1,996 nt of DNA from Escherichia coli (GTDB lineage Bacteria; Pseudomonadota; Gammaproteobacteria; Enterobacterales; Enterobacteriaceae). This document shows positions 1 through 1,996 of this stretch, piece after piece. Position 1 is the stretch's first letter. Every line of letters begins with the position of its first letter. The DNA is taken from NCBI RefSeq assembly GCF_003334405.1, contig NZ_QOWM01000041.1, one strand, 5' to 3'. Position numbers and translations under genes: made by a program. The notes below the pieces were generated by a model. That model worked only from the letters and a program-made list of their open reading frames with translations. It was not told the DNA's origin and made no database searches.

Positions 1-810
1 AACCAGATGGACCCGGTGTACACGCCGGCGCGAAAAATCCACCTGTACCACTGCGACCATCGCGGCCTGCCGCTGGCGCTTGTCAGCACGGAAGGGGCAA
101 CAGAATGGTGCGCAGAATACGATGAATGGGGCAACCTGCTGAATGAAGAGAACCCGCATCAGCTGCAGCAGCTTATCCGCCTGCCGGGGCAGCAGTATGA
201 TGAGGAGTCCGGCCTGTATTACAACCGCCACCGCTATTATGACCCGCTGCAGGGGAGGTATATCACTCAGGATCCGATTGGGCTGAAGGGGGGATGGAAT
301 TTTTATCAGTATCCGCTGAATCCGGTTCAGTATATAGATTCAATGGGACTGGCATCAAAATATGGACACTTAAATAATGGCGGATATGGAGCGAGACCCA
401 ACAAACCGCCTACGCCCGATCCAAGTAAATTGCCGGACATAGCGAAACAATTAAGACTGCCATATCCTATTGACCAGGCCAGTAGTGCGCCTAATGTTTT
501 CAAAACATTCTTCAGAGCATTAAGCCCTTACGACTACACACTGTATTGCAGGAAGTGGGTAAAACCAAATCTGACTTGTACGCCACAGGATGATTCCCAG
601 TATCCAGGGATGGATACAAAGACAGCAAGTGATTACCTGCCACAGACAAATTGGCCAACAACTCAATTACCACCAGGATATACTTGTGCAGAACCCTATT
701 TATTCCCAGACATTAATAAACCCGATGGGCCAGCAACAGCAGGGATAGATGATTTGGGTGAAATTTTAGCTAAGATGAAACAGAGAACATCGAGAGGAAT
801 AAGAAAATGA
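1..810 (+). CDS. ybfO: Rhs-family protein, 3' portion only (5'-partial; reading frame is open from base 1, so the ATG at 7 is an internal Met). Contains the end of the RHS repeat-associated core and a 152-aa variable C-terminal (CT) toxin domain of unknown activity; possibly an orphan Rhs core-CT fragment
   Basis: Translation carries the hallmark end-of-core motifs of Rhs proteins: [76 protein letters not shown] is at nt 226-246, DPIGL at 271-285 and the terminal DSMGL at 337-351. Composition switches from GC-rich to AT-rich at about nt 290-350, as expected at an Rhs core/CT junction. Stop TGA at 808-810. The symbol is from memory of the K-12 RhsC-region gene order and was not verified by search. 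Confidence 0.9.
223..351 (+). other. Rhs core/CT boundary: putative aspartyl-protease autoprocessing region ([21 protein letters not shown] ... [10 protein letters not shown]), with predicted release of the CT domain after Leu115 (nt 349-351)
   Basis: Seen in sequence: two D-x-x-G-L motifs 22 residues apart, DPIGL (aa 89-93 of the ORF-track numbering) and DSMGL (aa 111-115). Established knowledge: in Rhs and Tc-toxin RHS cages a PxxxxDPxGL motif marks the C-terminal autoproteolysis site, and the variable toxin domain starts immediately after it. The conserved Pro is replaced by Ser here. Confidence 0.7.
352..810 (+). other. Variable C-terminal (CT) toxin domain of the Rhs protein, 152 aa, Pro-rich, 3 Cys, no motif I can assign to a known toxin family
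   Basis: Sequence downstream of the DSMGL motif is AT-rich and shows none of the core consensus, as expected for a polymorphic-toxin tip. I could not find HNH-type, PD-(D/E)xK-type or deaminase-type motifs by eye. Confidence 0.6.
792..798 (+). promoter_or_regulatory. Shine-Dalgarno (GAGAGGA) for the immunity gene, lying inside the 3' end of the Rhs CT coding sequence; indicates translational coupling
   Basis: Purine-rich GAGG/AGGA core with an 8-nt spacer to ATG 807; start and stop codons overlap. Confidence 0.55.
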
Positions 811-863
811 AAAGAGTTTTGTTCTTTTTGCTGATGATATTTGTTAGTTTTGGTGTTATAGCT
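807..863 (+). other. Signal peptide of the putative immunity protein (aa 1-19, predicted SPase I cleavage after VIA)
   Basis: KR at positions 2-3, then a 13-residue hydrophobic stretch [13 protein letters not shown], then small residues at -3 and -1 (V-I-A). Not a canonical lipobox because Asp sits at -1 relative to Cys21. Confidence 0.6.
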
Positions 864-1376
864 GATTGCGAAATACAAGCTAAAGATCATGATTGTTTTA
901 CTATTTTCGCTAAGGGTACTATTTTTTCCGCGTTTCCTGTCTTAAATAATAAAGCCATGTGGAGATGGTATCAGAATGAGGACATCGGTGAGTATTATTG
1001 GCAAACAGAACTGGGTACATGTAAAAATAATAAATTCACACCAAGCGGGGCGAGACTCTTAATTCGCGTCGGGTCACTACGCCTTAATGAAAATCATGCC
1101 ATCAAAGGAACGTTGCAGGAGTTGATAAATACAGCAGAAAAAACGGCGTTTCTCGGCGATCGGTTTAGAAGTTATATAAGAGCGGGTATCTATCAAAAAA
1201 AGAGCAGTGATCCAGTTCAGTTGTTGGCAGTCCTTGATAATTCAATCATGGTAAAATATTTTAAAGATGAGAAACCAACTTATGCTCGAATGACAGCACA
1301 TCTCCCGAACAAAAATGAGTCTTACGAATGTTTAATAAAGATACAGCATGAACTAATTCGTAGTGAAGAGAAATAA
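807..1376 (+). CDS. ybfC: Putative Rhs immunity protein, 189 aa, with a predicted Sec signal peptide (exported, probably periplasmic)
   Basis: ORF starts at ATG 807 and overlaps the upstream stop by 4 bp (ATGA at 807-810), with a GAGAGGA Shine-Dalgarno 8 nt upstream. This is the classic position of an immunity gene directly 3' of an Rhs CT. N-terminus [19 protein letters not shown]|DC has a basic n-region, hydrophobic core and V-I-A cleavage site; the mature part has 4 Cys. AT-rich like the CT it follows. Stop TAA at 1374-1376. The symbol is from memory of an E. coli K-12 189-aa secreted protein and was not verified. Confidence 0.8.
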
Positions 1377-1458: not shown

Positions 1459-1616
1459 CAGGGAAAGATCACGTAACGCTACTTTTTTGTACTAAATAAT
1501 TCGAATTTTAAGTTCAACAATTGAGATACTACTTATTGTCTAAAGCTGTTTTTCATAGCTTATACATGATCAAATACTCCTTACATAAATAAGGTGAACA
1601 AATGGAACTTAAAAAA
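1459..1616 (+). repeat. Direct repeat copy 1 (pairs with 1839-1996; period 380 bp)
   Basis: Hand alignment at offset 380: 150 of 158 identical. All 8 mismatches fall at 1504, 1511, 1515, 1518, 1529, 1531, 1538 and 1539. Confidence 0.9.
1591..1596 (+). promoter_or_regulatory. Shine-Dalgarno (AAGGTG) for the H-rpt transposase ORF; an identical site recurs at 1971-1976
   Basis: AAGGTG with a 5-nt spacer before ATG 1602. Confidence 0.5.
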
Positions 1617-1856
1617 TTGATGGAACATATTTCTATTACACCCGATTACAGACAAGCCTGGAAAGTGGTGCATAAATTGTCAGATATTCTACTGTTGACT
1701 ATTTGTGCCGTTATTTCTGGTGCAGAAGGTTGGGAAGATATAGAGGATTTCGGGGAAACACATCTCGATTTTTTGAAGCAATATGGTGATTTTGAAAATG
1801 GTATTCCTGTTCACGATACCATTGCCAGAGTTGTATCCCAGGGAAAGATCACGTAA
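1602..1856 (+). pseudogene. ybfQ: Truncated H-repeat-associated (ISAs1-family) transposase, N-terminal fragment (84 aa); the last 5 codons (QGKIT) and the stop come from the repeat junction
   Basis: AAGGTG Shine-Dalgarno at 1591-1596 and ATG at 1602. Homologous sequence ends at codon 79 (nt 1838), exactly where the second copy of the upstream leader begins; the frame then reads into that leader and stops at TAA 1854-1856. Full-length proteins of this family are several-fold longer. The symbol is from memory and was not verified. Confidence 0.75.
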
Positions 1857-1996
1857 CGCTACTTTTTTGTACTAAATAATTCGCATTTTATGTTTAAAAA
1901 TTGAGATATTCCTTATTACCTAAAGCTGTTTTTCATAGCTTATACATGATCAAATACTCCTTACATAAATAAGGTGAACAAATGGAACTTAAAAAA
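1839..1996 (+). mobile_element. Second H-rpt copy, 5' end (leader plus start of transposase ORF), continuing beyond the window
   Basis: 150 of 158 positions identical to 1459-1616, including the SD and ATG, with the last 76 bp identical. Confidence 0.75.
1839..1996 (+). repeat. Direct repeat copy 2 (pairs with 1459-1616); truncated by the window end
   Basis: Same alignment as copy 1. The repeat is still perfectly matching at the last base of the window, so it almost certainly extends further. Confidence 0.9.
1982..1996 (+). CDS. ybfL: Start of the next H-repeat-associated transposase ORF (MELKK...), 3'-partial, runs off the window
   Basis: ATGGAACTTAAAAAA at 1982-1996 is identical to the start of the 1602 ORF and is preceded by the same SD (AAGGTG at 1971-1976). 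Only 5 codons are visible, so whether it is intact cannot be judged. The symbol is from memory only. Confidence 0.5.

Follow-up and report, generated by a model that had tools for sequence, protein, structure and literature searches.

The region spanning nt 280-360 of the Escherichia coli DNA analysed here (a stretch of 1,996 nt, referred to as the window) is very probably the seam of a modular polymorphic toxin, at which a step in base composition is fixed at the end of the Rhs core, ~30 nt before a homology boundary located at 324/325. This has a practical bearing on scans for such seams. The GC change-point at the end of the Rhs core is a fixed family feature, the six paralogs tested all sharing its coordinate, and it should not be taken as a recombination breakpoint. 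The boundary of the cassette needs to be mapped by nucleotide identity, which places it here at 324/325, inside the boundary motif.

Identity and Layout of the Locus

Many E. coli chromosomes, those of K-12 strains among them, contain the window with 100% identity; in NC_000913.3, it corresponds to positions 734,844-736,839 (100% identity). It comprises the last 810 nt of ybfO, ybfC, ybfQ and the left end of the next H-rpt copy (the start of ybfL), which are annotated in K-12-type genomes as RHS fragment, ybfC, ybfQ, and ISAs1. The gene order in K-12 is rhsC, ybfB, ybfO, ybfC, so that ybfO is an Rhs fragment located 3' of rhsC-ybfB; it is annotated as a pseudogene or a partial gene in this strain. 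Residues 13-49 encoded by the window ORF match the Pfam model PF03527 (RHS) with E = 7.7e-15, and the window core shares 94-98% nucleotide identity with the K-12 rhsA, rhsB, and rhsC main genes and with yibJ up to nt 299-326 (Table 1). Scans of the window for Rfam families, promoters, and terminators returned nothing above chance.

In K-12, the core that precedes this toxin end amounts to 1,020 nt only, and it includes neither an N-terminal domain nor an in-frame YD-repeat shell. With such a short core, ybfO is an orphan fragment of the Rhs/YD-repeat family and not an intact member. The retained core is 97.2% identical to that of the main K-12 rhsC gene. This rhsC gene, in the 3' vicinity of which ybfO is found, is intact and possesses a different toxin end and immunity gene, the toxin ends of rhsC and ybfO being unrelated past nt 325. 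Furthermore, as expected for an orphan module, the same end is found as a main end in the O157 rhsC locus and, elsewhere, in the rhsB locus. Of note, some main genes are damaged according to their annotation: O157:H7 strain 86-24 has a frameshift in both rhsC and ybfC, and the K-12 derivative ER1709 has one in rhsC. Such annotated frameshifts could reflect either real decay or assembly errors in repeats.

The 3' part of the window is occupied by H-rpt remnants, which match the ISAs1 model NF033564 with 65.1 bits. A 158-nt direct repeat (1459-1616 and 1839-1996, 95% identical) represents the H-rpt left end, present twice. The next H-rpt copy, starting at 1839, cuts off the first one (ybfQ) at 1838/1839, and the ybfQ ORF ends inside the second repeat because the first copy is interrupted by the start of the next.

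Table 1. Features of the 1,996-nt window (coordinates in nt from the first letter of the window).
Feature	Coordinates	Strand	Basis
3' end of the Rhs core ("hyperconserved" domain) in orphan ybfO	1-324	+	Pfam and paralog identity
First DPIGL of the DPxG-(18)-DPxG aspartyl-protease signature	271-285	+	Frame-1 translation
Low-GC conserved last 11 codons of the core, with the GC change-point at its start	292-324	+	Paralog alignment, codon counts
PxxxxDPxGL-type boundary motif, ending DSMGL	322-351	+	Read from sequence
Cassette-specific half of the motif (VQYIDSMGL codons), first sequence travelling with the toxin	325-351	+	Change-points, conservation
YbfO C-terminal toxin domain, A118-K269 (stop codon 808-810)	352-810	+	Family and GC evidence
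ybfC, presumed cognate immunity gene	807-1376	+	Annotation, linkage, homologs
H-rpt (ISAs1-family) remnants	1459-1996	+	Direct repeat, NF033564, annotation
ybfQ, truncated transposase gene (84 aa)	1602-1856	+	Annotation

The Compositional Step

The GC content is 0.59 over nt 1-290 and 0.43 over nt 291-810, and it amounts to 0.40 over nt 301-1376. It is lower still in the 3' direction, reaching 0.37 in ybfC (807-1376) and 0.29 in the spacer that follows this gene. The change-point, determined by maximum likelihood with 1000 permutations, is located after nt 293 for the span 1-810 and after nt 297 for the spans 1-1376 and 1-1996, with a resolution of tens of bases (2-log-likelihood support of 234-303 or 255-302, and of 213-325 for a 700-nt span). 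The corresponding log-likelihood ratios range from 10.7 to 26.2 and were reached by 0/1000 permutations. The third codon positions exhibit the same behaviour: G or C is found in 72/97 codons of the core vs 52/152 codons of the toxin part (GC3 of 0.74 and 0.34, respectively; Fisher p = 6e-10), and GC1/GC2/GC3 shift from 0.67/0.35/0.74 to 0.47/0.47/0.35 across the step. The step is thus a change of codon usage, to which amino-acid composition alone does not amount. The first-pass annotation had described a sharp GC drop at ~290-300, between a core with G/C-ending codons and an AT-rich stretch running from ~300 to 1376, and had named the lack of a significant step as an observation that would speak against it. 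Both parts of this description hold: the drop (0.59 to 0.43, change-point after 293-297) is significant, none of the 1000 permutations being as extreme, and it coincides with the contrast in GC3 (0.74 vs 0.34) and with the low GC of nt 301-1376 (0.40).

The codons that immediately follow the change-point belong to the core. Over nt 293-324, the window shares 93.8-96.9% identity with rhsA, rhsC, and yibJ, all of which bear unrelated toxin ends. With 94-97% identity to the main rhsC and rhsA genes and to yibJ, this segment is therefore conserved core and not incoming DNA. Its GC content is 0.41 in the window; among the eight K-12 paralog copies, it reaches 0.53 in ylbH and lies within 0.28-0.44 in the other seven. 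The N, F, and Y codons of nt 292-324 are all T-ending (5/5), vs 16/27 that are C-ending in the upstream core, while the GC3 of this short segment (5/11) does not differ significantly from that of either flank. Separate computations in rhsA, rhsB, rhsC, rhsD, rhsE, and yibJ place the GC change-point at the homologous coordinate 293-303 in all six cases. Since the same coordinate is found in paralogs with unrelated toxin ends, the position of the step belongs to the core end throughout the family. The GC step is not the scar of the arrival of the ybfO cassette. The 30-nt offset between step and homology boundary rests mainly on the conservation of nt 293-324 and not on the change-point statistics, because the resolution of the latter is coarse, with a support extending up to 325 in the 700-nt span.

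The Homology Boundary

The window was aligned with eight paralogous core ends originating from all five K-12 rhs loci. The identity change-point is found after nt 324 with the main rhsC gene, after nt 323 with the main rhsA gene, and after nt 326 with yibJ; in these three cases, the identity is 95-98% on its left side and 32-37% on its right side. With the main rhsB gene, the change-point occurs after nt 299. The more distant rhsD, rhsE, ylbH, and yibS copies retain 75-82% identity up to nt 327-348. Using a stricter BLAST scoring, close copies bearing other toxin ends cease to align with the window at 299-338, and distant ones at 261 at the earliest. Comparisons between strains are also informative. 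The O157 rhsC gene, which possesses the ybfO toxin end, is identical to K-12 rhsC over nt 289-324 and displays dense mismatches from nt 325. The rhsB-locus gene of RIVM_C039205, which possesses the ybfO toxin end as well, shows dense differences with K-12 rhsB from nt 300. The homology boundary is thus located at 324/325, ~30 nt 3' of the GC step. The end of homology at 299/300 with rhsB, close to the GC step, indicates that some cassettes include the WNxYxY codons and that the boundary is not unique.

An alignment with other Rhs core ends is the check that the first-pass annotation had proposed for its central claim, namely that the step pinpoints the recombination junction. Nucleotide identity does collapse in this alignment, after 323-326 with rhsA, rhsC, and yibJ and after 299 with rhsB. 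The claim itself is not borne out, homology continuing beyond the step to 323-326, or to 299 against rhsB.

The Boundary Motif and Predicted Autocleavage

A DPXG-(18)-DPXG motif has been defined as closing the Rhs core (PMC2935791, PMC8636562). It is found in the window as DPIG (271-282) followed, after 18 residues, by DSMG (337-348), the Pro of the second motif being replaced by Ser. In frame 1, P108 is encoded by nt 322-324, four residues before D113, DSMGL by nt 337-351, and the toxin part starts at A118 (nt 352). The terminal DSMGL had been recognized in the first-pass annotation, with coordinates 3 nt off. The two DPxGL motifs are the signature of an aspartyl autoprotease, the catalytic Asp being located in the second motif, after which cleavage takes place (PMC8636562). 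By analogy, D113 (nt 337-339) is predicted to be the catalytic Asp of YbfO, and autocleavage is predicted to occur after L117 (nt 351/352).

The homology boundary falls inside this motif, directly after the codon of P108. The segment covering nt 325-354 is free of mismatches in three further contexts in which this toxin end occurs, whereas its flanks carry 1-6% of mismatches; the same segment is only 40-63% identical to the K-12 paralogs that bear other toxin ends. It had been claimed that the module brought along its own boundary motif. This stands for the xxxxDSMGL half, from nt 325 on, given its strict conservation in the three contexts. The reasoning behind this claim, according to which the compositional switch occurs before the motif, does not stand, since nt 293-324 are conserved core. 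Among the eight related toxins from other genera whose sequence reaches the motif, five display the Ser-type (four DSMGL and one DSLGL), and the remaining three carry DPMGL, DPKGL, and DALGL. This Ser-for-Pro variant of the autocleavage motif, present in most members of the toxin family, might tune toxin release. The more distant family members mostly possess the canonical DPxGL.

The YbfO Toxin Domain and YbfC

Residues 118-269 of YbfO match no Pfam family, no NCBIfam family, and no PDB fold. The toxin family is very small, only 28 representatives being found when 1.84 billion proteins are clustered at 50%. It is characterized by the invariant pattern S-P-x-D-Y...C..W...C...C; three cysteines are thus conserved in all members, and no histidine is. 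In all members with an N-terminal extension, this extension is an Rhs core end.

The stop codon of ybfO and the start codon of ybfC share the tetranucleotide ATGA (nt 807-810), an arrangement typical of translationally coupled toxin-immunity pairs. The toxicity of YbfO and its neutralisation by YbfC are presumed from this genetic linkage, namely the ATGA overlap and the occurrence of linked homologs in other genera. YbfC has no match in Pfam, NCBIfam, or the PDB. Its residues 1-23 (nt 807-875) comprise MKR, 15 hydrophobic residues, and VIA/DC, and correspond by sequence to a Sec-type signal peptide, with an AXA-type site and no lipobox. The YbfC homologs also exhibit a basic-hydrophobic start, ending with ALA/YC or AIA/TC. 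Such a signal peptide suggests that the immunity protein is exported and, by extension, that the toxin may act in the periplasm. Most characterised Rhs toxins act in the cytoplasm, and a periplasmic immunity protein is believed to be unusual for Rhs toxins. YbfO-CT and YbfC could tentatively be seen as a functionally new Rhs toxin-immunity pair acting in the periplasm, a possibility that we consider somewhat unlikely. Further work on this locus could be rewarding only for the YbfO toxin, which is uncharacterised, and for YbfC, its presumably exported partner.

Distribution of the Cassette

A single copy of the segment encompassing the toxin and ybfC (nt 355-1376) is found, with 96-100% identity, in each of 3,615 out of 5,426 complete E. 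coli genomes. In O157:H7 strain 86-24, the ybfO-type end is the main rhsC end, at the same locus, between ybfA and ybgA (98.3% identity). At the rhsB locus, between nikR and yhhJ, it forms the main Rhs end in two strains, C1 and RIVM_C039205 (96.3%); the Rhs gene of this locus carries an annotated frameshift in the former and is intact in the latter. Of note, in these two strains, genes encoding NTF2-fold, DUF6258, pentapeptide, and sel1 proteins and a yibA homolog are found 3' of the ybfO-type end. This stretch forms a string of immunity-like genes together with another Rhs orphan. The latter is homologous to the window up to nt 338, which indicates that the limits of the cassettes vary by a few codons from one toxin type to another.

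Beyond E. coli, toxin homologs with ~70% protein identity are found in Salmonella enterica, in Phytobacter ursingii, and in metagenomes. Both of the toxin-homolog loci examined are Rhs loci, and one of them adjoins a gene with VgrG-type Pfam domains. Downstream of the toxin homologs, YbfC homologs (57-67% identity) are present in the two loci inspected for them, one from Phytobacter and one from a metagenome. The GC content of the homolog loci is ~0.55-0.59 in the core, 0.45-0.50 in the toxin, and 0.37-0.39 in the next gene. The occurrence of the cassette at other loci and in other genera supports the view, already put forward in the first-pass annotation, of a horizontally mobile CT/immunity module placed after the Rhs core end.

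Recombination and Proposed Displacement

In K-12, the visible scar is the point at which the ybfO core fragment starts, 696 nt 5' of the window. It has been proposed that a core fragment with its tip recombines homologously with the resident core, the old tip being pushed downstream (PMC2935791). Under such a homologous displacement model, the end of homology is only a 3' limit for crossovers and not the crossover of any one event. The actual crossovers are located somewhere upstream in the core. A search for them was performed by comparing K-12 rhsA, rhsB, and rhsC, O157 rhsC, and the RIVM_C039205 rhsB-locus gene. No single crossover emerged inside the 1,020-nt ybfO core, the variable sites being mosaic, with 0-6 mismatches per 100 nt and no clean switch. 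At the rhsC locus, K-12 and O157 are ~1.4% divergent 5' of the window coordinate -1200 and ~4.2% divergent between -1200 and the core end, which suggests that the exchanged tract may extend into the core by over 1 kb. The K-12 and O157 rhsC genes display 23 mismatches within the 200 nt from window coordinate -1200 to -1001, vs 0-7 per 200 nt further upstream; this cluster may represent the edge of an exchanged or converted tract.

An alternative reading would have the GC step at ~290-300 as the very junction left by the incoming cassette, everything from ~300 on being incoming DNA. The position of the change-point (293-297) agrees with it, as do the collapse of identity at 299/300 against K-12 rhsB and in the rhsB-locus comparison, and the motif codons that the cassette possesses at 325-351. 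This reading is nevertheless unlikely. Nt 293-324 are 94-97% identical to their counterparts in the main rhsC and rhsA genes and in yibJ, in spite of unrelated toxin ends, which largely refutes it for these copies, and the O157 and K-12 rhsC genes, with their different toxins, are identical over nt 289-324. The step is found at the same coordinate in 6/6 K-12 paralogs tested. Moreover, a homologous exchange puts the crossover anywhere in the shared core and not at the edge of homology, and the increase in divergence at the rhsC locus from 1.4% to 4.2% at -1200 suggests a tract reaching more than 1 kb into the core.

Readings that dispense with cassette exchange fare worse. The step might result from amino-acid composition or local selection alone, without any foreign origin, and the peptide encoded by nt 292-324 is indeed rich in amino acids with AT-rich codons, which accounts for part of the drop in this segment. 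The fall in GC3 from 0.74 to 0.34 (p = 6e-10) is, however, a signal at synonymous sites, the low GC extends into a separate gene, ybfC (0.37), and into intergenic DNA (0.29), and the same cassette is found on different cores, at different loci, and in other genera, all of which makes this explanation very improbable. Divergence of the toxin end in place, by rapid mutation (hypervariability) and not by replacement, would also produce an abrupt loss of similarity after the motif, and nothing specific speaks in its favour. It is hardly credible for a toxin end that is conserved at 96-100% in 3,615 of the 5,426 complete E. coli genomes and that has a ~70% identical protein counterpart in other genera, with the matching immunity gene downstream. 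Replacement has also been favoured over in-place divergence for the Rhs family as a whole (PMC2935791).

The modular seam is thus the preferred reading. A GC-rich core with a G/C bias at third codon positions, common to all clade-I Rhs genes, is joined to an AT-rich toxin domain and to an AT-rich ybfC, and the toxin and immunity genes move as one cassette between rhs loci and genera. The compositional step comprises two components, the last 11 codons of the core (292-324), AT-shifted in most copies, and the AT-rich cassette starting at nt 325, which carries its own xxxxD(S/P)xGL codons. New toxin ends would be installed by homologous recombination anywhere in the shared core 5' of the boundary, with the old end displaced downstream. 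In K-12, this old end would be ybfO-ybfC, which still serves as the main rhsC end in O157.

Comparison with Known Systems

The rhs-CT/rhsI modules described by Poole et al. (2011, PMC3150448) are delimited by PxxxxDPxGL. As in the orphan modules of that study, ybfO has a variable end after the motif and a small overlapping downstream gene, and the orphan of one strain is the main end in another. In contrast to these modules, the ybfO motif has Ser instead of Pro (DSMGL), the DNA diverges within the motif, as soon as its first Pro is passed, instead of beyond the final Leu, and the toxin and immunity roles of YbfO and YbfC are putative.

Jackson et al. (2009, PMC2935791) documented that core and tip differ in their GC signatures, and described both the boundary at DPXG-(18)-DPXG and a model of C-terminal displacement. 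Like their dissociated tips, ybfO consists of a core fragment and a tip located 3' of an intact rhs gene, with distinct GC contents of core and tip, and the same tip is found on full-length genes in other strains. According to the same study, clade I E. coli loci are generally devoid of dissociated tips, and attached and dissociated cores of one locus are identical. The ybfO orphan core, unlike these, is ~3% different from the main rhsC core, and it is mosaic. The same boundary, together with the difference in GC and codon bias, has been reported as well in PMC8636562 and PMC3150448.

The difference in GC content and codon bias between core and toxin, the boundary motif, and the orphan cassettes are therefore already known, and the window is the K-12 reference locus. 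As a discovery, the partition into a GC-rich core and an AT-rich extension carries little weight, and so do the PxxxxDPxGL boundary and C-terminal displacement, all of them being established. Hill and co-workers reportedly described the GC-rich core and the AT-rich core extension of the K-12 Rhs elements. The E. coli K-12 RhsC element, with rhsC-ybfB, ybfO-ybfC, and the H-rpt copies ybfQ, ybfL, and ybfD, is the same locus as the one analysed here, without any difference. What is added to it is the position of the compositional step at the base level (after 293-297), relative to the homology boundary at 324/325.
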